A stretch of DNA of 56,379 nt, from assembly GCA_964359575.1 (NCBI GenBank), contig CAYHTV010000002.1, positions 1 to 56,379 of the forward strand, given 5' to 3'. The notes beneath the pieces are model-generated. The model did not search any database, was not told the origin of the DNA, and was given only the letters and a program-made list of their open reading frames with translations. The first letter of the stretch is position 1. Each line of letters begins with the position of its first letter. Shown one piece after another: positions 2,310 to 55,708 of the stretch. The stretch is from an uncultured Planctomycetales bacterium (GTDB lineage: Bacteria; Omnitrophota; Gorgyraeia; Zapsychrales; GWA2-47-8). The position numbers and the translations under genes were made by a program.

Positions 2310-2412
2310 TATTGACCTTTGTAGAACCAAAAGAATTGAGGTAGTCAATATTGGCCTTTGTCTCCTCAATGATAAATCCAAATTTTTTTCTTTAGTTGTA
2401 CAAAGGCCCATA
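2310..2412 (+). repeat. 99-nt TIR repeat element, copy 1 (core 2312-2410, TA on both sides)
   Basis: Sequence TTGACCTTTGTAGAACC...GTTGTACAAAGGCCCA matches the other five copies. It lies between divergent ilvB and the PP-loop ATPase gene, 15 nt from the ilvB start. Confidence 0.95.
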
Positions 2413-2551
2413 AAGGGATTAAATGGCTTGGTTTATTTTTCTTAAAATTATCCGTAAAATTTGTGAGGATGATAATAACATATTTTGAAATTTATTTCCA
2501 GTTGAATTTCGGTGAAAAATTCGATATGATTGAACAGCTCATGGAGACAAA

Positions 2552-3577
2552 ATGATTCAAATAAATTCCCAAATATCGTCAAAAACAATTAAGGCGGTTG
2601 GTCTTATTTCCGGAGGGCTGGACAGTACTCTCGCCGCGCGCATCATAAAAGATTTAGGCGTCGAGGTTCACAGCCTTTATTTTGCCATGCCATGGGGATG
2701 CTGCGATAAAGGAAAGGCACAAGCAGCCGCTGATAATTTAGGTATTCCACTAGTTGTGCTGCAGCTCGATGAGCGGTATTTGAAAATTGTTGAAAAACCT
2801 AAGCACGGCTACGGTTCAGCGCTCAACCCTTGTGTTGATTGCCGGATTCATATGTTTTCGCGGGCGCGGCAATATATGGAATCGATCAGCGCGGATTTTG
2901 TTTTTACCGGAGAAGTTTTAGGCCAGCGGCAGATGTCGCAAATGAAGCATAGCCTCAAATGGGTGGAAGAGGGGAGCGGCTTGAAAGGACGGCTGCTACG
3001 GCCGTTGTGCGCCCAGCTTTTAGAGTCGACAATTCCCGAGCAGGAAGGGCTCATTGATCGCGTGAAACTTTTAAATATTTCCGGCCGTTCCCGCCAGGAA
3101 CAAATCAAACTCGCGGAATCCTTTGACATCCGTGATTACCCGAATCCCGCAGGGGGGTGTTTGCTCACCGATAAAAATTTTGCCCGGCGGATGAAAGACA
3201 CTTTTAAACATGGGTATCGCAATTTTCGTGAAACGATCGCGCTCAAATGGGGAAGGCATTTTCGCTTAAACGAAAATTTTAAAGTCATCCTCGGCCGCGA
3301 TGCAGAAGAAAACCAGGCTCTCAAGGCCTATGCCCATCCTGATGATACCATCATGGAAATTCCGGATAAAATCGGTCCCACACTGATTTTGAAAGGATAT
3401 AACCCATCCGAGGAAATTTTAGCGTTGTGCGCCGGATTAATTCAAAAATATTCTAAGCACAAAGAAAATCTTAATCCCATAAGCGTCGAGTATTGCCTCG
3501 CTAAAGAAATACACAATAAAAAAATAATTTTAGCTAAAATCCTTTCTGAAAAATATCTGCAGGAAGTGAGTGTTTAA
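2552..3577 (+). CDS. PP-loop (adenine nucleotide alpha-hydrolase) ATPase, tRNA-thiolation/ThiI-MnmA-like
   Basis: 341-aa ORF with an SGGLDS PP-loop near the N-terminus (GLISGGLDSTLAA) and conserved Cys clusters (NPCVDCRIHMF, NPAGGCLLTD). The exact substrate cannot be called from sequence. Confidence 0.65.
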   Translation: MIQINSQISSKTIKAVGLISGGLDSTLAARIIKDLGVEVHSLYFAMPWGCCDKGKAQAAADNLGIPLVVLQLDERYLKIVEKPKHGYGSALNPCVDCRIHMFSRARQYMESISADFVFTGEVLGQRQMSQMKHSLKWVEEGSGLKGRLLRPLCAQLLESTIPEQEGLIDRVKLLNISGRSRQEQIKLAESFDIRDYPNPAGGCLLTDKNFARRMKDTFKHGYRNFRETIALKWGRHFRLNENFKVILGRDAEENQALKAYAHPDDTIMEIPDKIGPTLILKGYNPSEEILALCAGLIQKYSKHKENLNPISVEYCLAKEIHNKKIILAKILSEKYLQEVSV

Positions 3578-4900
3578 ATGATTAGTGAAAAAAATATTCT
3601 TGATGCCTTGCGCCAGATTATTGATCCGGATTTCAATAAAGATATCGTCACGTTAGGATTTGTGAAAAATATAAAAATCGCTGGTGGCAATGTCACCTTT
3701 GATATCGCGCTCACCACCCCAGCCTGCCCAGTCAAATCAGAGTTCCAACGCCAGGCCGAAGAGGCAGTGAGAGCCCTTCACGGTGTTAAAGAAGTTCAAG
3801 TTAACATGACCACCCAGCCGTTTCAGCGGCCGGCTGCTGCTCAAGACACTCCCAGTACATTAAGCAATGTCCGCTCCATTATCGCGGTGTCTTCCTGCAA
3901 AGGCGGGGTGGGGAAGTCGACGCTTGCCGCGCATCTGGCTCAAGAACTTGCTCACCGGAGATTTAAAGTCGGGCTGGTGGACGTGGATATCCATGGGCCG
4001 TCCGTGCCGACCATTTTCAATTTATCCAAGGCCGAAATTTACGTGAATAAGGATAAACAATTTATTCCCATCGAAAAAAATAATTTGAAAATTATGTCCT
4101 TTGGATTTTTGCTGGGCGATGCGCCGGCGGTTATGCGCGGGCCCATTGTCTCGCGCTATGTCCAGCAAATTTTACATCAAACAGCGTGGGGGGAACTGGA
4201 TTATTTATTTATCGATATGCCGCCAGGGACCGGCGATGTACAGTTAACGATTACGCAAACAGCCCGTTTGAACGGCGCCGTGATTGTGACCACCCGCCAA
4301 ACATTGTCGTTGGTCGATGTGTCCCGGGGAATTTTGATGTTTGAAAAGGTCGCTGTCCCCATCTTAGGTATTATCGAAAATATGTCGTATTTTATCTGCG
4401 ATAAGTGCTCTAAAAAGCATTATATTTTCGGCGGCAACGAAAAAACTGATCTGCAGGAAAGATTCGGGATTGAAACTTTGGCCGAGATTCCGCTGCTACC
4501 GAGTTTTATGAGCAAAATTGAAACACCCATCGCTAACGAATTCATGATGCACGCGGTCGATAAGGTCGTGATGGCTCTGGGGAAAAGCAAATTACTGCAG
4601 CAGGATATTCCTATGATTAAATTTGATGCCAAACAGGTGAATTTAAAGTGGAAAGACGAAACCGAAATTTCCGTGAACAACCGTGACCTGCGTTTAAACT
4701 GCCGCTGTGCGCTGTGCGTGAATGAATTAAGCGGCGAACAAATCCTTAAAGAAAAGGATATTCCGACCGACATAGCCCCCAAAGAAATCTTTCCTCTGGG
4801 AAATTATGCGCTCGGTATCAGCTGGAACGATGCCCACTCCTCAGGCATTTATCCGTATAAGATGATGAAAGAACTGGCGCAGTACATAAAATTGCGTTAA
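3578..4900 (+). CDS. mrp: Fe-S cluster carrier ATPase, HCF101-type architecture (DUF59 - Mrp/NBP35 P-loop - DUF971)
   Basis: 440-aa ORF. The N-terminal DUF59/MIP18-like region is ILDALRQIIDPDFNKDIVTLGFV. The deviant Walker A is CKGGVGKST and the CxxC is FICDKCSKKH. The C-terminal DUF971-like region is LRLNCRCALCVNE...ISWNDAHSSGIYPY. Confidence 0.85.
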   Translation: MISEKNILDALRQIIDPDFNKDIVTLGFVKNIKIAGGNVTFDIALTTPACPVKSEFQRQAEEAVRALHGVKEVQVNMTTQPFQRPAAAQDTPSTLSNVRSIIAVSSCKGGVGKSTLAAHLAQELAHRRFKVGLVDVDIHGPSVPTIFNLSKAEIYVNKDKQFIPIEKNNLKIMSFGFLLGDAPAVMRGPIVSRYVQQILHQTAWGELDYLFIDMPPGTGDVQLTITQTARLNGAVIVTTRQTLSLVDVSRGILMFEKVAVPILGIIENMSYFICDKCSKKHYIFGGNEKTDLQERFGIETLAEIPLLPSFMSKIETPIANEFMMHAVDKVVMALGKSKLLQQDIPMIKFDAKQVNLKWKDETEISVNNRDLRLNCRCALCVNELSGEQILKEKDIPTDIAPKEIFPLGNYALGISWNDAHSSGIYPYKMMKELAQYIKLR

Positions 4901-4924
4901 AGAAGGATTATAAGTTTCGTGACA

Positions 4925-5239
4925 CTATGCCCCTAAAATCTTCTCCAACTCTCCACTCTGATGCAGTTCCATTGTAATATCACACCCGCCGATAAATTCC
5001 CCATTCACATAAAGCTGCGGGATCGTCGGCCACTCAGCATACTCCTTGATTCCTTGGCGGACTTCCTCATCTTCCAAAATATTAAATGATTTAAACGGAA
5101 TCTTGTATGAATTTAAAATGTTAACCACCTGAGCGGAAAAACCGCACATGGGTGCCTCGGGCGTGCCTTTCATGTAAAGCATGACTTTGTTGCCTTTGAT
5201 GTCTTTTTCAATTTTTTGTTTAATTTCTTCGGTTAACAT
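4925..5239 (-). CDS. grxD: monothiol glutaredoxin (Grx4/GrxD family)
   Basis: 104-aa ORF with a CGFS active site (PEAPMCGFSAQ) and the WPTIPQLYVNGEFIGGCDI motif. Confidence 0.92.
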   Translation of the reverse strand: MLTEEIKQKIEKDIKGNKVMLYMKGTPEAPMCGFSAQVVNILNSYKIPFKSFNILEDEEVRQGIKEYAEWPTIPQLYVNGEFIGGCDITMELHQSGELEKILGA

Positions 5240-5254
5240 AATTTATTCCTCCTT

Positions 5255-5388
5255 TATTGACTTTTTCTTAACCAATAGCATTAAGGTAGTCAATATTCTT
5301 GCCTCTCTCGTCCGTCTCACGCCGGACTCGATAGGCAAGTCGCTTTGTTTTCTTAAAATGATTGCTAATGGTTGTACAAAGCTCAATA
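5255..5388 (+). repeat. diverged 134-nt relative of the 99-nt TIR repeat
   Basis: Shares TATTGAC..., the exact 14-mer AGGTAGTCAATATT and GTTGTACAAAG...TCAATA with the canonical element, and has extra internal sequence. It fills the grxD-bolA intergenic gap. Confidence 0.7.
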
Positions 5389-5389
5389 A

Positions 5390-5650: not shown

Positions 5651-5889
5651 AATGTTTTCCAATTTATTTTTAGCCATTGAATAATATCATCGGATTCGTA
5701 CAGAGCCGTTCCATCAATAACCAGGCAGGGCACTTGAGTTTTTCCACCGATTTTAAGAAGCTCCTGACGGTTATTCGGATCGCTCTGCGTGCTTTTAAGC
5801 GGCAGTGAAATATTATTCTGCTGCATAAATCGTAAAACTTTTTGGCAATACGGACAAGTATCCTTATAATACAGTGTTAATGACGCCAT
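5647..5889 (-). CDS. dithiol glutaredoxin
   Basis: 80-aa ORF with a CPYC active site (YYKDTCPYCQKV) and a TQVPCLVIDG motif. Confidence 0.85.
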   Translation of the reverse strand: MASLTLYYKDTCPYCQKVLRFMQQNNISLPLKSTQSDPNNRQELLKIGGKTQVPCLVIDGTALYESDDIIQWLKINWKTL

Positions 5890-8166: not shown

Positions 8167-8269
8167 TATTGACCTTTGTAGAACCAAAAGAATTGAGGTA
8201 GTCAATATTGGCCTTTGTCTCCTCAATGATAAATTCAAATTTTTTTCTTTAGTTGTACAAAGGCCCATA
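8167..8269 (+). repeat. 99-nt TIR repeat element, copy 2 (core 8169-8267)
   Basis: Identical to copy 1 except for one substitution (8235). It lies between divergent gshA (start 8134) and bolA (start 8278). Confidence 0.95.
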
Positions 8270-12716: not shown

Positions 12717-12734
12717 AGGAAAAATTTCGTCAAG

Positions 12735-12816
12735 GGACGACCCTTCGGGTCGCCACTTGCCCGTGGCATGAAACCACGGGCAAGTACTGCAGCTAAATCC
12801 ACGGGCAAGCCCGTGG
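12735..12816. repeat. three consecutive GC-rich hairpins sharing the core CCACGGGCAAG
   Basis: The hairpins are 12735-12754 (7-bp stem with one bulged base, 5-nt loop), 12755-12785 (perfect 12-bp stem ACTTGCCCGTGG/CCACGGGCAAGT) and 12799-12816 (CCACGGGC AA GCCCGTGG). They lie directly upstream of the dusB start. Confidence 0.8.
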
Positions 12817-12837
12817 CCTTAGCTTCCGTAACAATTT

Positions 12838-13017
12838 CTAACGTGGAAAGGTTAATAATATTTCAATAATTTGATCGCGGTCTGCCCCTTGTGTTTGCAG
12901 GTAATACACATAGCTGTAGACAATCGCGGCGCAAAAAATAATTTTCACTAAAGCGCTGAAACGGTCTCCCAGAAGAAACCAAACATAAACCGCAATGAGA
13001 ATTAAAATTCCTAACAT
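12838..13017 (-). CDS. possible small membrane protein (59 aa), not in the ORF track
   Basis: Reverse-strand ATG at 13017 gives MLGILILIAVYVWFLLGDRFSALVKIIFCAAIVYSYVYYLQTQ..., with two hydrophobic segments. The RBS is weak and there is no homology evidence. Confidence 0.25.
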   Translation of the reverse strand: MLGILILIAVYVWFLLGDRFSALVKIIFCAAIVYSYVYYLQTQGADRDQIIEILLTFPR

Positions 13018-13062
13018 ATGGTTTTCTTTTACCCATAGGACTTTCGCGTTTGAATATAGAAT

Positions 13063-13148
13063 CTGTCATTCCCGCGAAGGCGGGAATCCATGCCTCTCGT
13101 CGAAGAGAAGACTAATGGATTCCCGACAAAGGCATTCGGGAATGACAA
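13063..13148. repeat. composite palindrome built from the unit CTGTCATTCCCGCGAAGGCGGGAATCCAT and its inverted, diverged partner
   Basis: 13063-13091 is itself a hairpin (CATTCCCGC/GCGGGAATC). 13115-13148 carries ATGGATTCCC...GGGAATGACA in inverse orientation. The same unit recurs at 38243-38271. Confidence 0.85.
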
Positions 13149-13241
13149 ACGCGTAAGTCCTAACCCAAAAATTCAAACGGGTTGCAATTTTTAACCTTAA
13201 AAAGTATACTATTAATTCCCAGTTAAGAATAGGAAAGTTTT

Positions 13242-14634: not shown

Positions 14635-15939
14635 ATGATTACACAGGATTCCAAAAGGAAAATTTCGTTTTATACCTTTGGTTGCCGCTTGAACCAAGCT
14701 GAGACCGCGGTTATTAAAAATATTTTTCAAAAGGAAAATTATGAGATTGTTGATTTTTCCGAACCGGCAGACGTGGTTGTGGTGAATACCTGCACCGTGA
14801 CGGAAAATGGCGACTCGGATACCCGCAGGCTTGTTTCCAAAATCAACCGCCTCAATCCGCAGGCTAGGATCGCGCTTATTGGCTGCCAAGCCCAAATCCA
14901 AAAAGAGAGGCTCACTGAACTTCCCAATGTTTATTGGGTGGTGGGGAATGCCAAAAAATTTGATTTGCCAAAAATTTTACAGGAATTGGATTCGCGTTCT
15001 AAGCCCAAAGTGATTGCGCCGGCCATCACGCGGGAGCCCTTTACCATTCCCGCGGCCGGTATTGATACGGATCACACCCGCGCGAATATCAAGATTCAAG
15101 ATGGCTGTGACTTTTTTTGTTCATTTTGCGAAATTCCTTATGCGCGCGGCCGTTCCCGCAGCCGTGAGTTTCAAGACATATTGAATGAAGCGCACATTTT
15201 AGCCGAGGCGGGCCACCGTGAAATTATTTTAACCGGGATCAATGTGGGAACGTACACGAACGCGCAACAGAGCTTCATGGATGTCATCGGCAAGCTAGAA
15301 AAAATTGAAAAAATTACCCGCATCCGTATTTCGTCCATTGAACCAACCACAATCCCTAAACAACTTATTGAGCGCATGGGGCAGCCTTCTAAACTCTGCC
15401 GTTATTTGCATATCCCACTGCAAAGCGGGCACGATACTATTTTGCAGCGTATGGCCCGCAAATACACCGTTAATGATTTTACAAATTTTATCGAATACGC
15501 TAAACGTGCCGTACCGGGAATTTGTATTGGTACAGACGTCATCGTGGGATTTCCAGGAGAGAAAGAGGAACATTTTGCCGCGACATACGAATTGCTGCGA
15601 AATCTGCCCATTGATTATTTTCATATCTTTAGCTATTCGAGGCGGTCTTTAGCCAAAAGCCGCTTTTTGACCGATACTATTGCGCGCGAGATTATCGAGC
15701 GGCGCAGCCAAATTTTACGCGAGCTTAGCCAGCGCAAACGGCGGTTGTTTTTTGAAACACTATTAGGAACAACTCAAGAAGTCCTTTTTGAAAATCAAAA
15801 GTGTGGATATTGGGTAGGCCTGACGGACAATTATGCCCGGATTAAAGTTCAATCGGATGATATTTTAAAGAATCAAGTTCGTAAGGTAAAACTGCGCGGC
15901 ATTGCAGGAGAAATCATATTGGGAATGCTCAGCGAATAA
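14635..15939 (+). CDS. mtaB: radical-SAM methylthiotransferase, MtaB type
   Basis: 434-aa ORF with N-terminal MTTase motifs (FYTFGCRLNQAE, VVNTCTVT, GCQAQ), the radical SAM CDFFCSFC motif and a C-terminal TRAM-like end. Confidence 0.85.
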   Translation: MITQDSKRKISFYTFGCRLNQAETAVIKNIFQKENYEIVDFSEPADVVVVNTCTVTENGDSDTRRLVSKINRLNPQARIALIGCQAQIQKERLTELPNVYWVVGNAKKFDLPKILQELDSRSKPKVIAPAITREPFTIPAAGIDTDHTRANIKIQDGCDFFCSFCEIPYARGRSRSREFQDILNEAHILAEAGHREIILTGINVGTYTNAQQSFMDVIGKLEKIEKITRIRISSIEPTTIPKQLIERMGQPSKLCRYLHIPLQSGHDTILQRMARKYTVNDFTNFIEYAKRAVPGICIGTDVIVGFPGEKEEHFAATYELLRNLPIDYFHIFSYSRRSLAKSRFLTDTIAREIIERRSQILRELSQRKRRLFFETLLGTTQEVLFENQKCGYWVGLTDNYARIKVQSDDILKNQVRKVKLRGIAGEIILGMLSE

Positions 15940-18856: not shown

Positions 18857-19531
18857 ATGAAATTCGATTTTGAACCTCTCTTATTAACATTTAAATTGGC
18901 GTCTGTCACAACGCTTTTTCTGATTTTGCTTGGAGTTCCTCTGGCGTATTGGCTCGCCTTTAGCCGCACAAAATTAAAATATTTTATCGAACCCTTAGTC
19001 AGCATGCCTCTGGTTCTCCCACCCACGGTACTGGGATTTTATCTGCTTTTGGTGTTTAGCCCCAAATCATTTTTGGGGAATTTTTTCGATTCAGTTTTAC
19101 ATATTCGGGTTGTTTTTAGTTTTCTAGGTTTAGTGATTGGCTCTGTTGTGTTTAGTCTGCCTTTTATGGTTAACCCTGTTAAATCGAGCCTGCAGTCATT
19201 TCCGCAATCACTTATGGAAGCGTCGTATACATTAGGCAAATCAAGGACGGAAACTTTCTTTAAGGTCATCCTGCCCAATATTAGGCCGGCACTTTTATCA
19301 GGGATTGTTATGGCCTTTGCCCACACGATCGGTGAATTTGGGGTAGTTTTAATGATCGGCGGGAATATCCCGGAGGTAACACGAGTCGCTTCGATTGCCA
19401 TTTTCGATGAGGTGGAAGCGTTAAATTATACAGCGGCTCATACGTATTCGGCCATTCTCTTTTTCATTTCCTTTATTATTTTATTTTCTCTGAATCTGGC
19501 TGATAAAAAAGGGCGCAAGGCTTTGGGATGA
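18857..19531 (+). CDS. modB: molybdate ABC transporter permease
   Basis: 224-aa ORF with an ABC permease EAA-like loop (EASYTLGKSRTETFFKVILPNIRPAL). It lies in a mod operon context. Confidence 0.88.
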   Translation: MKFDFEPLLLTFKLASVTTLFLILLGVPLAYWLAFSRTKLKYFIEPLVSMPLVLPPTVLGFYLLLVFSPKSFLGNFFDSVLHIRVVFSFLGLVIGSVVFSLPFMVNPVKSSLQSFPQSLMEASYTLGKSRTETFFKVILPNIRPALLSGIVMAFAHTIGEFGVVLMIGGNIPEVTRVASIAIFDEVEALNYTAAHTYSAILFFISFIILFSLNLADKKGRKALG

Positions 19532-21662: not shown

Positions 21663-21691
21663 TTGACCTTTTGGTTCTACAAAGGTCAATA
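21663..21691. repeat. solo terminal fragment of the 99-nt repeat, folded as a perfect 10-bp hairpin
   Basis: CTTTTGGTTCTACAAAGGTCAATA equals the terminal 23 nt plus TA of the canonical element. The preceding ATTGACC gives a stem ATTGACCTTT/AAAGGTCAAT. It lies between convergent mop and moeB and contains the moeB stop codon. Confidence 0.8.
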
Positions 21692-22837
21692 ATAGCGTGG
21701 AATAGTAGAATCAATTTCCTCCGACCAAGCTTGAATGCCTCCCTTAACATTGACAAGATAAGTATATCCTTGAGATTCCAAAAATTTGATGGCTCTTGCG
21801 CTGCGCCCGCCAAATTTACAGAAACAATAAATGAATTTGTCTTTCGGAATATCCTTAAAATCTCCTTCTAACATACTTAATGGCTTATGGTGAGCGCCTT
21901 CGATACGGGCGATATCCCATTCGGCTTGTTCGCGCACATCAAGCAGGTAGATGTCCGGTTGTTGATCGCGTAATTGTTTTAATTCCCGCACGGTAATTTC
22001 TCCAATAGACTGGTCCGTCCTTTGTGATTCTGTTGAACAATGCCACGTGTATTCTTCTAATGTATGAATAGTTGGTTTTGTCCCGCAGAGAGGACACTCT
22101 GGATCTTTCTTGATTTTAATCTCACGCCAACGCACGGATAGCGCATCAAAGATAAGAAGACGTCCTAACAACGGTTCTCCGATCCCGCAGATCCATTTGA
22201 TGGCTTCATTAGCCTGCATCAACCCGATGATCCCGGGCACAACACCAATGACACCCCCCTCTGCGCAAGACGGCATCTCTCCTGGCGGCGGAAGTTCGCG
22301 GAAGATACATCTATAGCAAGGGCCGCCTAAGCCAAAGATACTGCATTGACCTTCAAACTGATACACACCGCCAAAGATAAATGGTTTGTTCAAAAAGAAA
22401 CAAGTATCATTAATCAAATACCGCGATGGCAAGTTGTCCGTTCCATCGATAACCAAGTCATAGTCGGCAGAAATGACTTTGGCATTACCGGCATTGAGCC
22501 TTTTCTGGTATGTGACGATATTGACTTCGGGATTGATTTGTCTGAGTTTTTCATAGGCCGAAACAACCTTAGGTTTATCGATATCGGAAGTATAGTGAAG
22601 AATCTGCCGATGAAGATTGGATAAGGAAACCATATCCGGATCAACAAGACCAATTGTCCCGATACCGGCGGCCGCTAAATAAATAGCCGGTGATGAGCCC
22701 AACCCCCCCGCCCCGACCATTAGGATGCGGGCGTTTTTAAGCTGCATTTGGCCTGCTTGTCCTATCATCGGCAAAATTGTCTGACGGGCATAACGTATTT
22801 TTTCGTCTTGAGAAAAATTATAGATCGTCTTATCCAT
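21686..22837 (-). CDS. moeB: molybdopterin-synthase adenylyltransferase/sulfurtransferase (MoeB/ThiF with C-terminal rhodanese, MoeZ-type)
   Basis: 383-aa ORF with RYARQTILP, GAGGLGS, a CxxC pair (CYRC, CPLC) and a C-terminal rhodanese (CKFGGRSARA). Confidence 0.88.
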   Translation of the reverse strand: MDKTIYNFSQDEKIRYARQTILPMIGQAGQMQLKNARILMVGAGGLGSSPAIYLAAAGIGTIGLVDPDMVSLSNLHRQILHYTSDIDKPKVVSAYEKLRQINPEVNIVTYQKRLNAGNAKVISADYDLVIDGTDNLPSRYLINDTCFFLNKPFIFGGVYQFEGQCSIFGLGGPCYRCIFRELPPPGEMPSCAEGGVIGVVPGIIGLMQANEAIKWICGIGEPLLGRLLIFDALSVRWREIKIKKDPECPLCGTKPTIHTLEEYTWHCSTESQRTDQSIGEITVRELKQLRDQQPDIYLLDVREQAEWDIARIEGAHHKPLSMLEGDFKDIPKDKFIYCFCKFGGRSARAIKFLESQGYTYLVNVKGGIQAWSEEIDSTIPRYY

Positions 22838-22914: not shown

Positions 22915-23296
22915 GACGTTCAAATAAGTTAAACAAATTCACTATAGATATACAGGGCTAAGCTTGTATAATTCTCTTACTTTAAAAGTGTGCAACTGTT
23001 AAACATCAAATGAAACTATAACGCCGTCGCAAGTCGAACGACTCCCTAACCCCAACCAGCACAGGGGAAAAGGCAAAGTCGTATATATTGAAACCCGTGG
23101 CTGGCCATTGGCCACAATATAGACGCATGATGGAGGAGCTCATTGAGGCCGTTGCCGGGCCTTGAGTGGCGTAATAATCTTGCCATTTCAGATCTAAGAA
23201 TATAATTGCTCTTGAAGCGATTAGGTGCTATTATTGCTTCATATTATGAAGCGATTAGAGTGCTTAATCGCTTCACTTTTTAGGGAGAAACCACAC

Positions 23297-24433: not shown

Positions 24434-24536
24434 TATGGGCCTTTGTACAACTAAAGAAAAAAATTTGGATTTATCATTGAGGAGACAAAGGCCAATATTG
24501 ACTACCTCAATTCTTTTGGTTCTACAAAGGTCAATA
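24434..24536 (-). repeat. 99-nt TIR repeat element, copy 3 (core 24436-24534)
   Basis: Identical to copy 1 in reverse orientation. It begins 10 nt after the fic stop and ends 2 nt before the next ATG (24539). Confidence 0.95.
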
Positions 24537-24538: not shown

Positions 24539-24976
24539 ATGAATTACTGGTGGACATCAGACTATCATTTTTCGCATCACAATATTATCCGTTATTGTGA
24601 TAGGCCTTTTGCAACGGTTGAAGAAATGAATGAAGCGATCATCCGCAAGCATAACGAAAGGGTCAAGCCTGAAGACACGGTCTTCTTTTTGGGCGATTTT
24701 ATTTTTAAAGGGGGGAAAGAAGGCGGCGGCGATAGATATCGGCAGTTTGAACAGAGACTAAACGGCAAGTTCATTTTTATCAAGGGCAATCATGACCGGA
24801 ACAACAGTCTCAATGCGATCATAACCAAGATGTATATCCATTATGGTGCTAAAGATATTTGCATGATTCATAAGCCAGAAGACGCTGATCTATCGGAACA
24901 TTCAGTCTTCCTTTGTTTGACTGGATCATTGTTGGATCTTTGTCTATTACGATTGTGCCGGTTTTGGAAATTATGA
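24539..24976 (+). CDS. calcineurin-like metallophosphoesterase, probably C-terminally truncated
   Basis: The N-terminal motifs SDYHFSH, GDFIFKG and GNHD are present, but the distal GHxH motif is absent and the C-terminal 30 aa look unrelated. Confidence 0.55.
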   Translation: MNYWWTSDYHFSHHNIIRYCDRPFATVEEMNEAIIRKHNERVKPEDTVFFLGDFIFKGGKEGGGDRYRQFEQRLNGKFIFIKGNHDRNNSLNAIITKMYIHYGAKDICMIHKPEDADLSEHSVFLCLTGSLLDLCLLRLCRFWKL

Positions 24977-35754: not shown

Positions 35755-35776
35755 CCGTGCTAGCACTGTGCTAGCA
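35755..35776 (+). repeat. 22-nt direct repeat CCGTGCTAGCACTGTGCTAGCA, copy 1
   Basis: Exact copy at 36006-36027. Each copy contains two tandem palindromic TGCTAGCA boxes. Confidence 0.9.
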
Positions 35777-35894
35777 GAATAAGCTCCAACAGGGGCAAAA
35801 GCGGTATAACAGCAAACAAGTCAATTGTCCGTAAGCCCTAACACCGTTAAGAGTTAGCTAAAACCGTCAATCACCGTCGATATCGCTTGAATCT

Positions 35895-36005: not shown

Positions 36006-36027
36006 CCGTGCTAGCACTGTGCTAGCA
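36006..36027 (+). repeat. 22-nt direct repeat CCGTGCTAGCACTGTGCTAGCA, copy 2
   Basis: Exact repeat of 35755-35776. Both copies are preceded by AAAACC. Confidence 0.9.
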
Positions 36028-36140
36028 AAATTAAATTCCCTGTGTTGGGTCTTAAGGTTTCTTGCTCATATTTGATTATGATGGTTTTTGTTTCATGTTG
36101 TTAATCGGGAGGATTGATTTGACCTTATAAAATTGTGGGC

Positions 36141-36169
36141 TTGACATTGTATCACGTTTGGGATACACT
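36141..36169 (+). promoter_or_regulatory. promoter-like TTGACA-17-TACACT with embedded inverted repeat TGTATC-N8-GATACA (candidate TA operator)
   Basis: -35 at 36141-36146, inverted-repeat arms at 36148-36153 and 36162-36167, and -10 at 36164-36169. It lies 40 nt upstream of the dinJ-like start. Confidence 0.45.
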
Positions 36170-36208
36170 TTAAGTGAGGCAAAACGAACAGAAAATGGGG
36201 TGATTAAA

Positions 36209-36469
36209 ATGAGCAAAACAGCTATGATCCGGGCTCGGACTGAGCCGAAGTTAAAAAGTAAAGTTGAACGAATTTTTGAGGCGTTAGGTTTATCCGCTTC
36301 AGAGGCTATTAATCTTTTTTACCACCGTGTTGAACTCGAAAACGGTTTGCCCTTTGATTTAAAAATTCCTAATACAACCACCTTGCGCGCAATGAATGAT
36401 GTGGAGAAGAAAAAGAATCTACACTCTCACAGCAATGTTGAAGATATGCTGAAAGATTTAAAGAAATAA
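36209..36469 (+). CDS. dinJ: RelB/DinJ-family type II antitoxin
   Basis: MSKTAMIRARTEPKLKSKVERIFEALGLSASEAINLFYHRVELENGLPFDLKIPN is a ribbon-helix-helix DinJ pattern. It lies 4 nt upstream of the toxin gene. Confidence 0.85.
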   Translation: MSKTAMIRARTEPKLKSKVERIFEALGLSASEAINLFYHRVELENGLPFDLKIPNTTTLRAMNDVEKKKNLHSHSNVEDMLKDLKK

Positions 36470-36473
36470 CGGC

Positions 36474-36743
36474 ATGCTCAATCCTTTTTACACCAATCAA
36501 TTCAAGCGCGACTATAAGCTTCAGCAAAAGCGCCACAAAGATCTCCACCTCATAGATGATCTAACCAATTTATTGGTCAAAGAAGAACCGCTTCCTGCCC
36601 AAAATAAAGACCATCCGCTTCAAGGTGATTACAAAGGTTACCGTGAGTGCCATATTGAGCCAGACTGGCTGTTGATTTACAAAATTGAAGGCGGTAGTAT
36701 CTATTTTGTCAGAACCGGTACCCACTCCGATTTGTTCAAGTAA
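36474..36743 (+). CDS. yafQ: YafQ/RelE-family type II toxin (mRNA interferase)
   Basis: 89-aa ORF with the pattern FKRDYKLQQKR...DHPLQGDYKGYRECHIEPDWLLIYK...RTGTHSDLF. Confidence 0.85.
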   Translation: MLNPFYTNQFKRDYKLQQKRHKDLHLIDDLTNLLVKEEPLPAQNKDHPLQGDYKGYRECHIEPDWLLIYKIEGGSIYFVRTGTHSDLFK

Positions 36744-37017
36744 TTTTTGATTAATGAAAATGTGAGGAAGATTTGAAGAAAAGCCATTACCACCCAAAAC
36801 AACCGTTTGATAAATATCCATATGATAGGAAATTCTCTAAGCCCACAGAGGTCTTTTGTTCGGATCAATTCCACGGTTATTATGTGCGCGGACAAATATT
36901 GAGTTTTCCTTACGCCGCTGACGGTCCTTCCGAGAAATATTCAGAATTTTATTATCAGTTTTATTTGTTGGCTTTGGTGAATCCAGCTTTTTTGATGCGC
37001 GCAATAAACAGTTTGAT

Positions 37018-38235
37018 TTGGTGAAGGTGTATAAACAGGATCGTCTAAGCCGTCGGCTTAAAGACCTTTTAGGGCTTCTTGAAGAATTTGATAACTTGGG
37101 TGTTGGTTATAAATCAGCCACGGAGCCCTTTGATACAACATCCAGCGCCGGAAAGATGGCCATTCAAATGCTTGGCAGTTGCGCGGAGTTTGAACGAAAC
37201 CGATTGGTTGAGCGCGTGTTCCCGGGCATGCTAGTCGGTGTTAAGAAAGGCCATTGGCAGGGAGCGCGTTACGCGCCGTATGGCTATCGTTATAATAAAG
37301 AAATTAAGAAGCTGGAAATACACAAACAGGAAGCCAAGATTGTCCGAGAAATATATGAGCGTTATATCAACGGCCAAAGCACGTCGCAAATTGCCGGACA
37401 TTTTTACCGGTTAGGAACATCTTCCCGTCAAGGCGGTCGGTTTTATACAAAATTTATCGGGACGATTTTAAAGAGCAAGGTGTATTTAGGGACACTGGTG
37501 TGGAACCGTCATCGTTATAATCCTAGGGCAAAAACGAAAGATGGTCAGGGCAAAGGCTACAAGCATGTACGCAATGATCCTTCTAAGATTGTGGAAGTGC
37601 TAAATGTTCATGAACCCATTATTACCCAGCAACAATTCGACGAGGCATCGGTCTTGCTTAAACGCAATCGCACGAATGCGGTGGTGAAGTTTAAAAACAA
37701 CAATTATCACTTGTCCGGTGTGCTAAAATGCAAGGAGTGTAATGGAAGTTTTCGTGGTATTATGTCCGTTTCGAATCATCGCACCAAAGTTAAACGGCCG
37801 TGGTATCGCTGTTCATCCAAAGGCCCATAATACTTCGCAACCAGAGCGAGTATTTCTTGATGAGCTTGAGGCATTGGCCAAGCTGTTAAATAAAAACCTT
37901 GAGAAACAAAAAGGTTTGTATGAAGTTTTTTTCTCAAGATAGCATTAACCTTGAAATCTATAAAGACCATGCGGAATTGTTGCGCAATGAAGAAAAGAAA
38001 TTAAAGCAAGATATCAAGGCTGTACAATTAAAAATTTTAGATAAACGCAACTCCATTGATCTGCAAGGGCAACGCAGGATTTTCTTCTACATTTAAGAAA
38101 AACGCCCGATAATAGCCAAATGGATTTCCTCATAAAAACGTTTATGAGGATTATTTTTAAGACGATTTACATTCGGAATCAAGAGATTGTCACGTTTGAA
38201 TTGAATGAGCCGTGGCAGACGTGTTATGACGAAGG
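37018..38235 (+). pseudogene. degraded large serine recombinase (N-terminally truncated, split over three frames)
   Basis: 37018-37830 carries the end of the resolvase domain (VYKQDRLSRR), the recombinase domain (APYGYRYNKE...IVREIYERY...STSQIAGHF) and the zinc-ribbon start (CKECNGSF...WYRCSSKG). The coiled-coil and C-terminal pieces continue in other frames (37742-37942, 37899-38096, 38120-38235). The catalytic Ser region is absent. Confidence 0.75.
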
Positions 38236-38242: not shown

Positions 38243-38271
38243 ATGGATTCCCGCTTTCGCGGGAATGACAG
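38243..38271 (-). repeat. 29-nt hairpin unit CTGTCATTCCCGCGAAAGCGGGAATCCAT (same family as 13063-13091)
   Basis: The reverse complement matches 13063-13091 except for one loop base. It generates the spurious peptide strings VIPAKAGIH, MDSRFRGND and SFPRKRESI in overlapping tracked ORFs. Confidence 0.9.
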
Positions 38272-42937: not shown

Positions 42938-43174
42938 TTATAACGAGCGATGGGTGCCATCACAAAAAGGCGGATTATGCGAATGCTTACAGCCACACCA
43001 AGCGATCTTTTGTTTTGTCTCAACTTTTAAACTCAGAGGCCGGAATAAAGTCGTGCGGTGCGAACCGTCACAATAGGGTTGATTTTTTGACTGTCCACAG
43101 GCACACCACGCATAAGTTCCTGGTTCAACCTCTAAGACAAAGGGTTGGCGTTGGGCAATTGTTGGTTTATCCAT
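42938..43174 (-). CDS. CDGSH iron-sulfur domain protein (two CDGSH motifs), tandem paralogue
   Basis: WCACGQSKNQPYCDGSH and WCGCKHSHNPPFCDGTH. GGAGGT RBS. Confidence 0.88.
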   Translation of the reverse strand: MDKPTIAQRQPFVLEVEPGTYAWCACGQSKNQPYCDGSHRTTLFRPLSLKVETKQKIAWCGCKHSHNPPFCDGTHRSL

Positions 43175-43406: not shown

Positions 43407-43509
43407 TATGGGCCTTTGTACAACTAAAGAAAAAAATTTGGATTTATCATTGAGGAGACAAAGGCCAATATTGACTACCTCAATTTTTTTGGTTCTACAA
43501 AGGTCAATA
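43407..43509 (-). repeat. 99-nt TIR repeat element, copy 4 (core 43409-43507)
   Basis: One substitution (43496) relative to copy 1. It lies 26 nt upstream of the lhgO start. Confidence 0.95.
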
Positions 43510-45821: not shown

Positions 45822-45866
45822 TTTTTTTTGGCTGGATTTAAGTACAATTTTGCAGTATTAAAGTAC

Positions 45867-45969
45867 TATTGACCTTTGTAGAACCAAAAGAATTGAGGTA
45901 GTCAATATTGGCCTTTGTCTCCTCAATGATAAATCCAAATTTTTTTCTTTAGTTGTACAAAGGCCCATA
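45867..45969 (+). repeat. 99-nt TIR repeat element, copy 5 (core 45869-45967)
   Basis: Identical to copy 1. It lies between the PCD stop and the Rrf2 regulator start (45988). Confidence 0.95.
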
Positions 45970-45987
45970 AAAGGAAGCAAGAAACAC

Positions 45988-46476
45988 ATGTTTAAAATTA
46001 ACCGAAAATTGGAATACGCCTTAATCGCCCTGAAGTACATGAGCAGCAAAAAGCAGGGTCAGCTGACTTCCGCAAAGGAAATTTGCGATCTTTATCATAC
46101 ACCTTTTGATCCGACATCCAGGGTTTTACAAATCATGGCGCAGAATGAAATTCTTAAAGCTGAGCACGGAGCGCATGGCGGCTATCACATCATCAAAGAT
46201 CTTGAAAAAATATCGCTGTCGGAATTAACCGACTTAATTACCGGCCCCATTGAAATCGCCAGTTGTTTTCACGGTGACTATTCACATTGTGAGATCACCG
46301 GTTCCTGCAGCGTGATTGGACCGATGTTGAATCTCAACATGGAAATCAGCAAACTTTTTAAAACGATTATGATTACGGATCTTGTCCGCTCACACCACCA
46401 AGACGAAAAGGCAATTAAGGCTAAACCCTTTGCCGCTGGCAAGGATTTAAACGATTCAATGGTGCATAATCCCTGA
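45988..46476 (+). CDS. Rrf2-family transcriptional regulator heading the suf operon
   Basis: An N-terminal wHTH typical of Rrf2 (MFKINRKLEYALIALKYM...SAKEICD...PFDPTSRVLQIM) plus a Cys cluster (CFHGDYSHCEITGSC). Confidence 0.8.
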   Translation: MFKINRKLEYALIALKYMSSKKQGQLTSAKEICDLYHTPFDPTSRVLQIMAQNEILKAEHGAHGGYHIIKDLEKISLSELTDLITGPIEIASCFHGDYSHCEITGSCSVIGPMLNLNMEISKLFKTIMITDLVRSHHQDEKAIKAKPFAAGKDLNDSMVHNP

Positions 46477-51783: not shown

Positions 51784-51789
51784 AAAATA

Positions 51790-51953
51790 CTAGAACACTG
51801 TAACAGAAATTTATGGTCCATATTTCCTCTCCCTTTTTCAGGGAGAGGGTAGGGTGAGGGTTAAAGATCGCTGAATATTCACCCCTCATCCTAACCTTCT
51901 CCCCAAAAAGGGGAGAAGGAGTTAACACAGAAACTAATGTTACAGTGTACTAG
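51790..51953. repeat. 164-nt composite palindrome (outer 16-nt arms with nested hairpins)
   Basis: The outer arms are CTAGAACACTGTAACA (51790-51805) and TGTTACAGTGTACTAG (51938-51953), matching at 15 of 16 positions. Inner hairpins are CCTCTCCC-N7-GGGAGAGG (51826-51848) and CCTTCTCCCC-N5-GGGGAGAAGG (51895-51919), plus a central imperfect pair. It fills the sufU-moaA gap. Confidence 0.85.
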
Positions 51954-51969
51954 AATTTGGGATTTAACT

Positions 51970-52986: not shown

Positions 52987-53001
52987 CTGAAATTTTTGCT
53001 C

Positions 53002-53961
53002 CTACCAAAAAACTTCCGATGAATTTTTAGGCAGGTTGTTGATCCTTCCCACAAATCTCACTTCCCGCACTAAATCAAAATGGAATTTTTCTTTTACGAT
53101 CTGCTGCATTTTGCGCGATAACTGGTAAACGTCATTCGCCGTGCACTGCGGGCCTTTCACGATAATATTGGCATGCTTTTCAAAAATAACCGCGCCGCCA
53201 ATACGTAAATTCTTACCGCCAGCTTGCTCCAAGAACCACCCGGCTGCCTGGCGTTTTTCGGCCCTTGAGGTCGGCTCAACATTTCGAAAAAAACTTCCCG
53301 CGCAGGGATGAGTGGTAAGATTGGGATGTTTTTCATGACGGATACCGAGGATTTTCGTACGTTCTTCCAATAATTTCTCGCGGCTTCCCGGCTGCAACGC
53401 AAACCGCGCCGCGACAACCATCTCAGCGCGTTCCTTTAAATTGGAATAGCGATAGGTAAACCCTAACGCCTCTGGCCCGACTTTTCTGCGAATTCCTGTT
53501 TTTGAAATGAGTGTGACTGATTTAAGGACATCGCCCACTTGTTTGCCAAACGCGCCGGCGTTTCCGACAATCGCACCACCAACCGTGCCAGGGATTCCGG
53601 AAGTGTATTCCAACCCGGCTAATCCTTGCTCAATCGAAAAAAGTGCCAAGGCATCCAGACTTGTACTCCCGGAAACTAGAACATCGTTGCCATCACACTC
53701 CAAAAGCGGTTGGTCAGCCACATACCGAATCACAAAACAATCAACTCCTTCATCTGAAACAACTAAATTCGATCCGCCGCCGATTAAAATAAACGGTGAT
53801 TGAGAATCCGCTAAAAATTTTACCGCCAGTTCAAGTTCTTCGGAAGTTTGACAGTGAAGCAGCCCGCGGCAGGGGCCGCCTAAACGGAATGTTGTATAAT
53901 CGCACAGCCGAGCCTGGAGGATAATTTGATCATGAATTTTTTGTGAGAGGGTTACATCCAT
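53002..53961 (-). CDS. murB: UDP-N-acetylenolpyruvoylglucosamine reductase
   Basis: 319-aa ORF with an FAD-binding PCMH pattern (TFRLGGP, ILIGGGSNLVV, IPGTVGGAIVGNAGAFG) and a MurB C-terminal domain (AGSFFRN). Confidence 0.9.
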   Translation of the reverse strand: MDVTLSQKIHDQIILQARLCDYTTFRLGGPCRGLLHCQTSEELELAVKFLADSQSPFILIGGGSNLVVSDEGVDCFVIRYVADQPLLECDGNDVLVSGSTSLDALALFSIEQGLAGLEYTSGIPGTVGGAIVGNAGAFGKQVGDVLKSVTLISKTGIRRKVGPEALGFTYRYSNLKERAEMVVAARFALQPGSREKLLEERTKILGIRHEKHPNLTTHPCAGSFFRNVEPTSRAEKRQAAGWFLEQAGGKNLRIGGAVIFEKHANIIVKGPQCTANDVYQLSRKMQQIVKEKFHFDLVREVRFVGRINNLPKNSSEVFW

Positions 53962-54518
53962 TAAATTTTAGCGAGATTGGGTTTGGCATCTTCATACTGA
54001 GCCATTAAAAATAGATAGACCGACAGACGATTGAAAAATGCCAAAAGCCGCTTATTGGAAATCTCCTCAGCTTCAAAAAGCCGTACGACTTTACGCTCAC
54101 AGCGTCGGGCAACAGCGCGGGCCTGATGCAAATAGGCCGCCGAAAGGTCTCGTCCAGAAATGACAAACCCCTTGGGAATTGCCGTGGCTTCGTGTAAATT
54201 CTTGACTTTTCTTTCAAATTGATCTAACCAGTTCTTATCCAACAATGGGTGCGATGTTGCCGGTGTGCCATGATGAGTCGTTGCTAACTGCGAACCAACA
54301 ACGAACAATTCACGCTGTAAATCAAGCAGTTCTGTTTTGATCCGCTTTTTTTTCGCGTGATAACGGGCTAGGCCTAAAACACTTCCTAACTCATCCAAAT
54401 CACCAAGCGCTTCCGGCCGCAGTGAACTTTTGGAAACTCGCTCTCCTGAAAAAAGGGAAGTGGTCCCGTAGTCCCCGCGCTTGTCAATCAAATCAATTTT
54501 TTGCCCATTATGGTTCAT
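53961..54518 (-). CDS. ATP:cob(I)alamin adenosyltransferase, PduO type
   Basis: RGDYGTTSLFSGERVSKSSLRPEALGDLDELGSVLG is the PduO-type N-terminal signature. The start is chosen at the ATG at 54518, 1 nt after the upstream stop (alternative 54539). Confidence 0.8.
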   Translation of the reverse strand: MNHNGQKIDLIDKRGDYGTTSLFSGERVSKSSLRPEALGDLDELGSVLGLARYHAKKKRIKTELLDLQRELFVVGSQLATTHHGTPATSHPLLDKNWLDQFERKVKNLHEATAIPKGFVISGRDLSAAYLHQARAVARRCERKVVRLFEAEEISNKRLLAFFNRLSVYLFLMAQYEDAKPNLAKI

Positions 54519-54519
54519 T

Positions 54520-54888
54520 CTACTCTTGAAAATATGCATTGCTGCCCATTACTAAAGCAATTTCGGCCTTTTTTAATTCTTTGCCAAGATACGCAATATG
54601 TGCTTTATTCTTAAACCACTCGCTATGATGCTTCTTTTCATAATCTAAAATTCCCATATAAAGGTCTTGTGTTTTCCGGCCGCTAAAAATTTTAACAATA
54701 CTGTGCCCTTTATTACAAACGGCAACTTCAATACGGTAAGTGCTGAAATTTGGACGAATCAAAAAATAATAACCGGAAGGATCGCGGTGAAAATGTTTGT
54801 ACGGGTCATATTCTTTGCATTCAATGGTTTCGCAGCCCTCAGCATGTTTTTGGGAAGACCAGTGATATGAAATTTTATCACGGCTCAT
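54520..54888 (-). CDS. DUF4346-like protein
   Basis: 122-aa ORF. DPSGYYFLIRPN...IEVAVC...IFSGRKTQDLYMGIL...HIAYLGKELKKAEIALVMGSNAYFQE resembles the DUF4346 pattern as remembered. Confidence 0.5.
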   Translation of the reverse strand: MSRDKISYHWSSQKHAEGCETIECKEYDPYKHFHRDPSGYYFLIRPNFSTYRIEVAVCNKGHSIVKIFSGRKTQDLYMGILDYEKKHHSEWFKNKAHIAYLGKELKKAEIALVMGSNAYFQE

Positions 54889-54898
54889 GCGTAATCTC

Positions 54899-55348
54899 CT
54901 AACTGTTATCTTTCAAGCCGCTGATCACGGGCGGCTGATCACCTGTGTTAATCCATCCCGAATCACCGTCCGCATAAAATTCTTTTTTCCAGATAGGGAG
55001 GCGATGTTTTATTTCATCAATAATATAACGACAGGCTTGAAACGCTGCATCACGGTGCGCGGCAGCCACTCCGATCCAAACGGCCATTTCGCCAACCTGC
55101 AATTGCCCCACACGATGAAAACAGCGGGCATCGATTATGGAAAATTTTTGGCAGGTTTCTTGAAGAATTTTTTGCCCTTCGGACTCACATAATTTATGAA
55201 ATGCCTCATACTCCAGCGCTAAGACTTTTCGATTTTCGTTCTGTTCCCGCACGGATCCGCTGAAAGTGCAAAACCCGCCAGCTGTTTTGACGGCCCAGCC
55301 TTCTTGAAGGTGATTCGGATCTAAAGGATGAGTTACCAGTTTAAACAT
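54899..55348 (-). CDS. moaE: molybdopterin synthase catalytic subunit MoaE
   Basis: GGFCTFSGSVRE...LEYEAF...RVGQLQVGEMAVWIGVAAAHRDAAFQACRYIIDEIKHRLPIWKKE. The start is chosen at MFKLVTHPLD, which gives a TGATG overlap with the upstream ferredoxin stop. Confidence 0.88.
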   Translation of the reverse strand: MFKLVTHPLDPNHLQEGWAVKTAGGFCTFSGSVREQNENRKVLALEYEAFHKLCESEGQKILQETCQKFSIIDARCFHRVGQLQVGEMAVWIGVAAAHRDAAFQACRYIIDEIKHRLPIWKKEFYADGDSGWINTGDQPPVISGLKDNS

Positions 55349-55602
55349 CAATAAGTTACCTTCACCGTGCCGCATCTGACAACACATTGACACCCTAAAC
55401 GGTTGTTGCGATCCATTCCCAAGTCCAACTCTTCTTGATTGAGCTCACCTAAATTATCGGCTCCTTCCACAACCTCAATCTGGCAGGTCCCGCAAACCCC
55501 CGAGTTGCAACTGAACGGGACGCCGGCTTTTTCGCATAGCGGAGCCATTTGTGTTCCATCCGGAATTTCATATTCAACATTATCAATGATAACTTTAGCC
55601 AT
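55348..55602 (-). CDS. plant-type [2Fe-2S] ferredoxin-like protein
   Basis: 84-aa ORF with Cys spacing C-x4-C-x2-C-x31-C (CNSGVCGTC...C), a beta-grasp-size protein. Confidence 0.75.
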   Translation of the reverse strand: MAKVIIDNVEYEIPDGTQMAPLCEKAGVPFSCNSGVCGTCQIEVVEGADNLGELNQEELDLGMDRNNRLGCQCVVRCGTVKVTY

Positions 55603-55605
55603 TCC

Positions 55606-55708
55606 TATGGGCCTTTGTACAACTAAAGAAAAAAATTTGGATTTATCATTGAGGAGACAAAGGCCAATATTGACTACCTCAATTCTTTTGGTTCTACAAA
55701 GGTCAATA
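55606..55708 (-). repeat. 99-nt TIR repeat element, copy 6 (core 55608-55706)
   Basis: Core identical to copy 1. It lies inside a same-strand gene string, between the ispH stop (55728) and the ferredoxin start (55602). Confidence 0.95.

Follow-up and report, generated by a model that had tools for sequence, protein, structure and literature searches.

A TA-flanked 99-nt inverted repeat, very probably a recently amplified MITE family, in a groundwater lineage of Omnitrophota

Gene content of the window and copies of the element

The window, i.e., the whole stretch of DNA analysed in this work (56,379 nucleotides (nt) of contig CAYHTV010000002.1, assembly GCA_964359575.1, from an uncultured bacterium belonging to the Omnitrophota), is a housekeeping region rich in iron-sulfur (Fe-S) genes, namely sufBCDS, nfu, nifU, two bolA, grx, an ApbC/NUBPL-like gene, ispH, and those encoding a CDGSH protein, an Rrf2 regulator, and a ferredoxin. 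Six copies of a 99-nt element with terminal inverted repeats (TIRs), each bordered by the dinucleotide TA, are dispersed among these genes. The data reported below indicate that this element is very probably a MITE (miniature inverted-repeat transposable element) of the Stowaway/RUP/Correia kind, recently amplified.

A search allowing up to three mismatches retrieved the 99-nt core exactly six times from the window (four copies identical, two with one mismatch), and a core match was found in 0 of 100 dinucleotide-preserving shuffles. When the copies were aligned together with 60 nt of flanking sequence, the likeness started and stopped sharply, with TA on both sides in 6/6. Hence, the six copies with zero or one mismatch and the invariant TA flanks described in a first-pass annotation of the window were all recovered; as to the two substitutions it listed, the one at 8235 (copy c2) was found there, while the other lies at 43486 (copy c4; core position 22, G>A) and not at 43496, ten positions higher. 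The six copies are oriented 3:3 and show no preference with respect to the adjacent gene, and the core is richer in A+T than the window (66% vs. about 56–57%). The inventory of six was complete for near-identical cores, but the self-comparison of the window disclosed two relatives that it had overlooked, a 134-nt copy and a 27-nt solo unit (Table 1).

Table 1. Copies of the element and of its relatives in the window (c1–c6, subfamily B, and solo unit) and on other contigs (L numbers), with the distance from the flanking TA to the start codon and the reconstructed empty sites
Feature	Position	Strand	Context	Gap from TA to start codon	Reconstructed empty site
MITE copy c1 (TA + 99-nt core + TA)	2310–2412 (core 2312–2410)	+	Divergent spacer, ilvB-like (start 2295, minus)/thiI-like (start 2552)	14 nt (ilvB-like)	TGTATTACTTAAAGGGATTAAATGG
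MITE copy c2	8167–8269 (core 8169–8267)	+	One substitution (8235); between gshA (start 8134, minus) and bolA (start 8278)	8 nt (bolA); 32 nt (gshA, divergent)	ATGATACACTAAAAACCTCATGATAAC
MITE copy c3	24434–24536 (core 24436–24534)	-	9 nt past Fic stop (24424); metallophosphoesterase ATG 24539	2 nt (phosphoesterase)	AAGCAGAGTCTTATAATGAATTACTGG
MITE copy c4	43407–43509 (core 43409–43507)	-	One substitution (43486); DAO-family oxidoreductase start 43536; divergent CDGSH gene 42938–43174 (minus)	26 nt (DAO-family oxidoreductase)	CGTATCGTTTTTAATAATTGAAGC
MITE copy c5	45867–45969 (core 45869–45967)	+	Between pterin-4a-carbinolamine dehydratase stop (45821) and Rrf2 regulator start (45988)	18 nt (Rrf2 regulator)	AAAGTACTAAAAGGAAGCAAG
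MITE copy c6	55606–55708 (core 55608–55706)	-	lytB-fer2 operon junction; 19 nt past lytB stop; ferredoxin start 55602 (minus)	3 nt (ferredoxin)	GATCGAGGTCTTAGGAATGGCTAAAG (minus strand)
Diverged subfamily-B copy	5255–5388	+	134 nt including both TAs; between glutaredoxin and second bolA-like gene
Solo end-unit	21663–21691	-	Palindrome of 27 nt with a perfect stem, TTGACCTTTTGGTTCTACAAAGGTCAA, then TA; identical to nt 1–24 of the element
Further copies	L055 (2), L059 (2), L056 (2), L060 (2; same region as L061)		Fetched contigs
Further copies	L057 (1), L058 (1), L071 (1; different well, H41)		Fetched contigs
Further copies	L083 (2)		Contig colinear with the window; just past the left end of the window

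Structure, folding, and coding capacity of the element

The TIRs of the element (TTGACCTTTGTAGAAC... and ...GTTGTACAAAGGCCCA; element end TATTGACCTTTGTAGAAC) match at 13 of 16 positions, and the match extends to about 24 nt if one indel is allowed. An inner hairpin ATTGAGG/CCTCAAT follows, and the core CCTTTGT/ACAAAGG is present three times; all of these features had been described in the first-pass annotation, and both the sequence and the folds bear them out. Indeed, both strands fold into a long imperfect hairpin of the termini plus the inner ATTGAGG/CCTCAAT stem (-25.5 and -27.2 kcal/mol, z-scores of -3.8 and -3.4), and stable hairpins of this kind are expected of any element with TIRs. 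Moreover, the core harbors an internal third copy of the terminus, GTCAA-TA-TTGGCCTTTGT, resembling two element ends that abut at a shared TA. On this basis, the 99-mer may be the fusion of a 36-nt unit, similar to the solo palindrome, and a 61-nt unit.

Of the six reading frames, two run through the element with no stop codon, which accounts for two spurious open reading frames (ORFs) at 45858–46049 and 55439–55723. These had been recognised as translations of the repeat, correctly, although the former reads through it on the minus strand. Probing Pfam with the two frames did not retrieve any family below E = 0.08, and neither a transposase remnant nor a coding signal was detected; no Rfam family was matched at gathering thresholds. 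A possible outward promoter was rejected, since no sigma-70 promoter of at least 9/12 matches lies within the element and only a weak 8/12 match was found, on the minus strand. A role as an intrinsic terminator was likewise discarded, none being predicted inside the element, and no match to the IHF-like site WATCAANNNNTTR was seen by inspection. Lastly, a longer similarity between the flanks of c4 and c5 (142 nt at 91%) turned out to be AT-rich noise outside the element.

Diverged relatives of the element

The 134-nt copy, representing a subfamily that we refer to as B, shares with the main family the termini (TATTGACTTTT... and ...GTTGTACAAAGCTCAATA) and an internal GGTAGTCAATATT block, and has an extra central hairpin. 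A second subfamily-B copy occurs at an unrelated locus (L056, 5104–5236); the hammerhead-like sequence CTGATGAG in its hairpin was rejected as a ribozyme candidate, since it is an arm of a perfect palindrome and a GAAA core is lacking. A further variant, on contig L059, is 96% identical to the main family, and its two TIRs are fully complementary (16/16). Both subfamily B and this variant keep the TA ends and the termini. As regards the solo unit, its terminal TTGA provides the TGA stop codon (21686–21688) of a ThiF/MoeB-like ORF (21686–22837, minus strand).

A profile built on the A (main) and B forms also gave a weak nhmmer match (E = 0.017) in the metagenome-assembled genome (MAG) of another member of the Omnitrophota (JBDRMG010000056.1, L022, positions 4943–5050). 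This 108-nt, TA-ended sequence forms a hairpin (-32 kcal/mol); its terminus is TATTGAC, its TIR spans about 27 nt, and a AGTCAATATT block lies inside it. The architecture TATTGAC...GTCAATATT is a candidate feature of a superfamily comprising the A, B, and L022 forms, and the L022 hairpin may be the mark of a wider and older superfamily within the phylum. The existence of an older subfamily and of a solo end-unit shows that the family has been resident for longer than the recent burst.

Distribution of the element within and outside the population

The window comes from a MAG of the Hainich aquifer, and the proteins that it encodes were also found on contigs from well H52 of this aquifer (ENA ERZ1292620-22 and Logan assemblies). 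A protein search with the concatenated open frames, one metagenome DNA scan with a 20-nt end, and one contig colinear with the window yielded about 13 further insertion sites, in unrelated contexts, in the same species-level population (Table 1). The first-pass annotation had made its mobile-element reading depend on the existence of further copies elsewhere in the genome, and these are such copies. Altogether, the lineage sample contains near-identical copies (94–100% identity) at about 19 unrelated loci and in both orientations. Two open frames mean that gene callers sometimes translate the element, and the protein search in fact retrieved seven database "proteins" that are read-through of it; the metagenome scan gave one real extra copy plus seven chance matches in a conserved gene.

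The copies outside the window are 100% identical in the short-read contigs, except for the L059 variant, and 94–98% identical in the error-prone assemblies, where the differences are mainly homopolymer indels. They adjoin hemN and a giant protein, accB/accC, ribF, a cold-shock gene, and a TPR gene. A number of short-read contigs begin or terminate within a copy, as is common where a repeat is dispersed. In the error-prone assembly L083, the ortholog of c1 (15185–15250) carries a 47-nt insert resembling the adjacent 5' coding sequence of ilvB, probably a consensus or assembly error rather than a real variant, and another copy (19204–19298) stops about 8 nt short of the element's end.

One might suppose that the repeat was wrongly collapsed, or inserted, during assembly or binning of a MAG contig, given that the source is metagenome-assembled and that short-read contigs often end at the repeat. 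Nevertheless, three replicate assemblies, the Logan assemblies, and the independent, error-prone L083 all extend across these filled sites into unique sequence on both sides, which makes such an artefact extremely unlikely. Three error-prone assemblies also contain copies of the element.

Outside this population, the element was not retrieved. When species-representative genomes were scanned with GshA, nearly all the matches were Candidatus Omnitrophota MAGs, the top one being Omnitrophica WOR_2 RIFCSPHIGHO2_02_FULL_48_11 (80% amino acid identity). In 48 loci (about 0.7 Mb) of these related Omnitrophota, with GshA identities of 35–80%, the element was absent both by blastn-short and by nhmmer with the A+B profile, and the syntenic ilvB-thiI neighbourhoods of the relatives are without it. 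It was also absent from L082 (GCA_964520655.1), the closest other genome recovered (about 80–84% nucleotide identity). An exact 50-mer of the element was absent from 185,579 species-representative genomes, and a distant-mode BLAST of plasmid and phage collections gave no match. A search for sister species with the concatenated flanking proteins found nothing nearer than 64% identity. These data support the confinement of the element to one species-level lineage.

Taken together, the unrelated loci, the restriction to one lineage, the presence of subfamilies, and the lack of any Rfam or coding signal support the idea, already put forward in the first-pass annotation, of a non-autonomous mobile element that underwent recent amplification.

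Placement next to start codons

All six copies of the window sit 2–32 nt upstream of a start codon (6/6), the start positions being backed by the onset of Pfam domains. This sharpens the earlier description of intergenic copies lying 2–30 nt from a start or stop codon. Since 26.5% of the intergenic TA sites lie equally near a start, finding 6/6 within 34 nt upstream corresponds to p ~3.5 × 10⁻⁴, a value obtained with a threshold picked after the data were seen. Without the element, the spacers of c2, c3, and c6 would measure 42, 13, and 24 nt, the latter two being operon junctions. Copies outside the window tend to be placed likewise wherever their annotation can be used: one lies 13 nt upstream of a NifU_N start (L083) and one 17 nt upstream of accC (L056).

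The Shine-Dalgarno (SD) sequence of the host is of the AAGGAG-like type, and both ends of the element read ACAAAGG outward. The outward AAAGG falls 8 nt before the ATG at c3 and 9 nt before it at c6, where the native upstream sequence has been displaced by 101 nt. At c4 and c5, the native SD is retained between the element and the ATG, and at c5 the SD (AAGGAAG) directly follows the 3' TA. As the AAGG motif is within the stem formed by the TIRs, its availability in the RNA is uncertain. Next to c1, a well-placed AAGGGA SD abutting the 3' TA precedes a 21-codon ORF (2423–2488, MAWFIFLKIIRKICEDDNNIF), a candidate leader peptide upstream of the thiI-like gene.

The placement of 6/6 copies just before start codons also speaks for a conserved cis-acting element, that is, either the operator of an Fe-S/redox regulator or an RNA structure of the 5' untranslated region (5'-UTR) kept by selection or gene conversion, as do the stable RNA fold of both strands and the fact that most of the adjacent genes are Fe-S related (suf, nfu, bolA, grx, Rrf2, ferredoxin, ispH). 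We regard this explanation as very unlikely. The whole window is itself an Fe-S gene cluster, so that the Fe-S association comes with the location; the copies are 99–100% identical over 99 nt, unpaired parts included, unlike the conservation of operators or riboswitches; their orientation with respect to the downstream gene is 3:3; those outside the window adjoin unrelated genes; the same gene neighbourhoods occur in the relatives without the element; and Rfam gave no match.

A different possibility is that the element, or its enzyme, targets translation-initiation regions, inserting between the SD and the promoter or upstream stop, and that it works as a mobile 5'-UTR cassette, bringing a hairpin together with a substitute ribosome-binding site and rewiring expression at operon junctions, here across the Fe-S gene neighbourhood; it would thus be a semi-domesticated or domesticated regulator rather than junk. 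We consider this doubtful. The effect on the host is probably limited to hairpins in 5'-UTRs and operon junctions, with an SD-like motif or a stop codon occasionally supplied.

Target context and mobilising enzyme

TA borders every full copy, within the window and outside it. On the 5' side (18 left flanks), 14 cases have T and 3 have C at position -1, and 13 have T at -3; on the 3' side (17 right flanks), 13 cases have A and 4 have G at position +1, and 10 have A at +3. Compared to all the TA contexts of the window, the bias is significant both for a pyrimidine at -1 (p = 1.7 × 10⁻⁴) and for a purine at +1 (p = 3.8 × 10⁻⁶). The target context is thus palindromic, TnT-TA...TA-AnA, as expected of a transposase that works as a symmetric dimer at a TA in the centre. 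The only direct repeat compatible with the flanks is 2 bp long, the 3-mers and 4-mers of the two sides not being direct repeats.

Empty alleles were searched for through six flanking proteins. The population contigs covering c2, c4, c5, and c6 were all filled, as were the sites of c1, of the subfamily-B copy, and of c2 in the independent assembly L083. The ilvB-thiI spacers of the relatives are too diverged to align; their lengths (about 130–290 nt) are consistent with that of the window spacer minus the element (155 nt). L082 harbors a different insert (AbiEii/DUF6088) between the Fic and phosphoesterase genes and does not offer an isogenic empty site. The empty sites reconstructed from the filled ones are reported in Table 1.

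Pfam scans of the called ORFs detected no DDE transposase in the window, nor is a Y1 transposase encoded there. The earlier statement that the window lacks a transposase holds for DDE enzymes; a truncated large serine recombinase (36773–37830) is present, besides which the window contains no other recombinase. Neither isolated nor 1-kb-spaced matches to the TIR were present in the fetched loci, and scanning viral contigs with an 18-nt end gave chance coding matches only.

Several of these findings weigh against a TA-duplicating MITE, or qualify it. No autonomous insertion sequence (IS) or transposase with matching ends was retrieved from the window, about 1.4 Mb of fetched loci, one metagenome scan, and one viral scan, and no empty site was recovered among the population contigs or the relatives. 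As only filled sites are available, we infer the duplication of TA, just as we do the family of the transposase and any effect on expression, and TA could instead be the outermost base pair of the element. Furthermore, the solo unit is flanked on the left by GA rather than TA, and, with regard to the placement, in addition to the threshold mentioned above, at least one copy outside the window (L055, 2146–2248) is far from any start codon.

In principle, TA might belong to a mobile repeat of 103 bp moved by a different enzyme, such as an IS5-family transposase of the ISL2/IS427 group (2–4-bp duplications), or in a way that gives no duplication at all, as by a Y1 transposase of the IS200/IS605 type (PATE) or a RAYT acting on REP-like hairpins. 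The failure to recover either an empty site or a parent IS fits this scenario, and so do the other REP-like hairpin repeats of the genome; moreover, the inverted symmetry continues through TA into the flanks (T-TA...TA-A), so that the boundary of the element is not fixed by filled sites alone. On the other hand, the element has real TIRs of 16–24 bp, differently from the subterminal, non-complementary hairpins of IS200/IS605 ends, and a length of about 100 bp compared to the 20–40 bp of REPs; the flanks permit a 2-bp direct repeat only; and, once the L083 copies are included, the orientations are free of strand bias on passing the GC-skew switch of the window. We therefore deem a mover of this kind unlikely. 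The assignment of the mobilising enzyme specifically to the IS630 type is itself tentative and, at best, about evenly balanced; the first-pass annotation was right to offer this link and the duplication of TA as possibilities only.

According to the MITE reading, we can depict the following scenario. The element would derive from a cut-and-paste DNA transposon as a 99-bp, AT-rich, non-coding form, mobilised in trans by a transposase whose gene lies elsewhere in the genome or has since been lost. This enzyme would bind the two TIRs of about 16–24 bp, the internal third copy of the terminus being possibly a further binding site, and would excise the element; insertion would then take place at a TA within a symmetric T-rich/A-rich context (TnT-TA-AnA), with TA duplicated in the IS630/Tc1-mariner fashion. 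The many near-identical copies would stem from a recent burst within a single Omnitrophota lineage of this aquifer. Plausibly, the copies upstream of start codons survived because leaders rich in A+T and in purines, like stop-codon/SD junctions, are similar to the target, and because insertions are tolerated there.

Comparison with known elements

Bacterial MITEs, as outlined by Delihas (PMC2229807), are shorter than 200 bp and A+T-rich, with TIRs, a terminal 5'-TA-3', and a target-site duplication. The anatomy of the element is the textbook form of a bacterial MITE; it is a new family of a familiar type, in a phylum that has been little studied, and it entails no new mechanism. The nearest analogues, compared by description, are RUP of Streptococcus pneumoniae, associated with IS630-Spn1, and Correia. 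RUP is about 107 bp long, non-coding, AT-rich, and intergenic, has TIRs and a TA target, and is present in roughly a hundred near-identical copies, which have been read as recent mobility (PMC2229807); size class and TIRs are alike in the two elements, and the TA flanks of the present one are compatible with such a target. RUP also clusters with other small repeats (PMC10969869), and the present element lies near 120-nt and 436-nt repeats. However, the TIRs of RUP match a resident IS630-family element, whereas here no parent IS was found, and the host phylum differs.

The Correia elements of Neisseria (CREE/NEMIS) are about 100–155 bp long, with TA ends and long TIRs, and exceed 100 copies in a small genome; they lie mostly directly upstream of genes, with which they are transcribed as hairpins, and no cognate transposase is known for them (PMC2229807, PMC10969869). 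This likeness is again one of description; the host phylum is a different one, and Correia carries strong sigma-70 promoters, an IHF site, and hairpins that are RNase III substrates, while our element has no promoter of at least 9/12 and no IHF-like site. Among eukaryotic elements, the Tc1/mariner-derived Stowaway MITEs are similar in size class, TIRs, TA flanks, AT-rich target, genic preference, and burst amplification (PMC5172404 and general knowledge). For some Stowaway families, binding by a transposase has been shown, whereas the link of the present element to Tc1/mariner/IS630 is drawn from the TA flanks only.

Other repeats are more distant. ERIC/IRU sequences of enterobacteria are likewise intergenic, imperfect palindromes (about 127 bp) with terminal TA, and they occur within mRNAs, affecting transcript stability (PMC2229807, PMC10969869). 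Their copies are diverged and shared across genera, which marks them as old, largely immobile elements, whereas the copies of the window are 99–100% identical and belong to one lineage. The REP/BIME sequences associated with RAYT are imperfect palindromes of 20–40 nt, often clustered, in contrast to a 99-nt, TIR-built element dispersed singly in a window with no Y1 gene. Finally, the PATE of the IS200/IS605 group have no TIRs but subterminal hairpins, a fixed tetra- or pentanucleotide 5' of the insertion, and a strand bias, compared to the complementary TIRs, symmetric flanks, and mixed orientation observed here.

A search of the literature pairing Omnitrophota with MITEs found nothing relevant, and this is apparently the first MITE family characterised in Candidatus Omnitrophota. 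The element explains the fragmentation of short-read assemblies of this groundwater lineage and yields spurious ORF calls, with at least seven such "proteins" in public databases. Its near-identical copies can serve to mark strains, and they attest to recent transposition in an aquifer population that grows slowly. Among its features, only the location close to start codons may deserve further work, as a possible natural test of the effects of hairpin insertion on translation.

Other repeats and features of the window

A 436-nt intergenic segment (12729–13164) is 99.8% identical to part of an otherwise unrelated Hainich contig (L055, 1585–2020). It contains REP-like hairpins (CCACGGGCAAG... 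and GTCATTCCCGCGAAGGCGGGAATC) and, by eye, a 59-residue hydrophobic ORF on the minus strand. Positions 12728–13042 are missing from the colinear contig L083; this is an indel polymorphism, and the stretch is possibly another mobile segment. The GTCATTCCCGCGAAGGCGGGAATC hairpin family occurs in the window at 13063–13091 and 38243–38271. A second hairpin family, GTCATTGCGAGCGAAGCGAAGCAATC...GCGGCTCCTCGTAATGAC, is found in L055 (2020–2140) and L071 (about 840–960) and is the source of "IASEAKQS / CFASLAMT" pseudo-peptides. In both contigs, small hairpin repeats adjoin MITE copies, indicating that the repeats cluster.

A single-copy palindrome of about 175 nt (51785–51958) is 72% self-complementary, with TIR-like ends CTAGAACACTGTAAC and GTTACAGTGTACTAG and an internal hairpin of the GGGAGAGGGTAGGGTGAGGG type; the called start of a MoaA-like gene (51937) falls in its right arm, and a similar hairpin (GGGAGAAGG/CCCTCTCCC) is present in L055 at about 2360–2460. 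Another imperfect palindrome (63 nt, 23213–23275), made of GAAGCGATTAG repeats, overlaps the called GTG start of the Fic/DUF4172 gene and may be an operator. Downstream of c3, the metallophosphoesterase gene (24539–24976) codes for 145 residues with an aberrant C-terminus, compared to the 177–180 residues of the members of its 90% cluster in other genomes, and is likely frameshifted or truncated.

The serine recombinase mentioned above follows a RelB/YafQ pair (36158–37830 for the whole region). Its sequence starts at position 66 of the Resolvase profile and ends within the zinc-ribbon domain; an integrated element probably left it behind as a split or truncated remnant. Two 26-nt direct repeats (35755–35780 and 36006–36031) lie near this region.

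Lastly, the GC skew turns from negative to positive at about 22–24 kb, where the cumulative skew has its minimum, and gene orientation changes from mostly minus to almost all plus at about 12.7–13.2 kb. These switches could mark a replication origin or terminus, no dnaA being seen in the window, or the boundary of an inversion.

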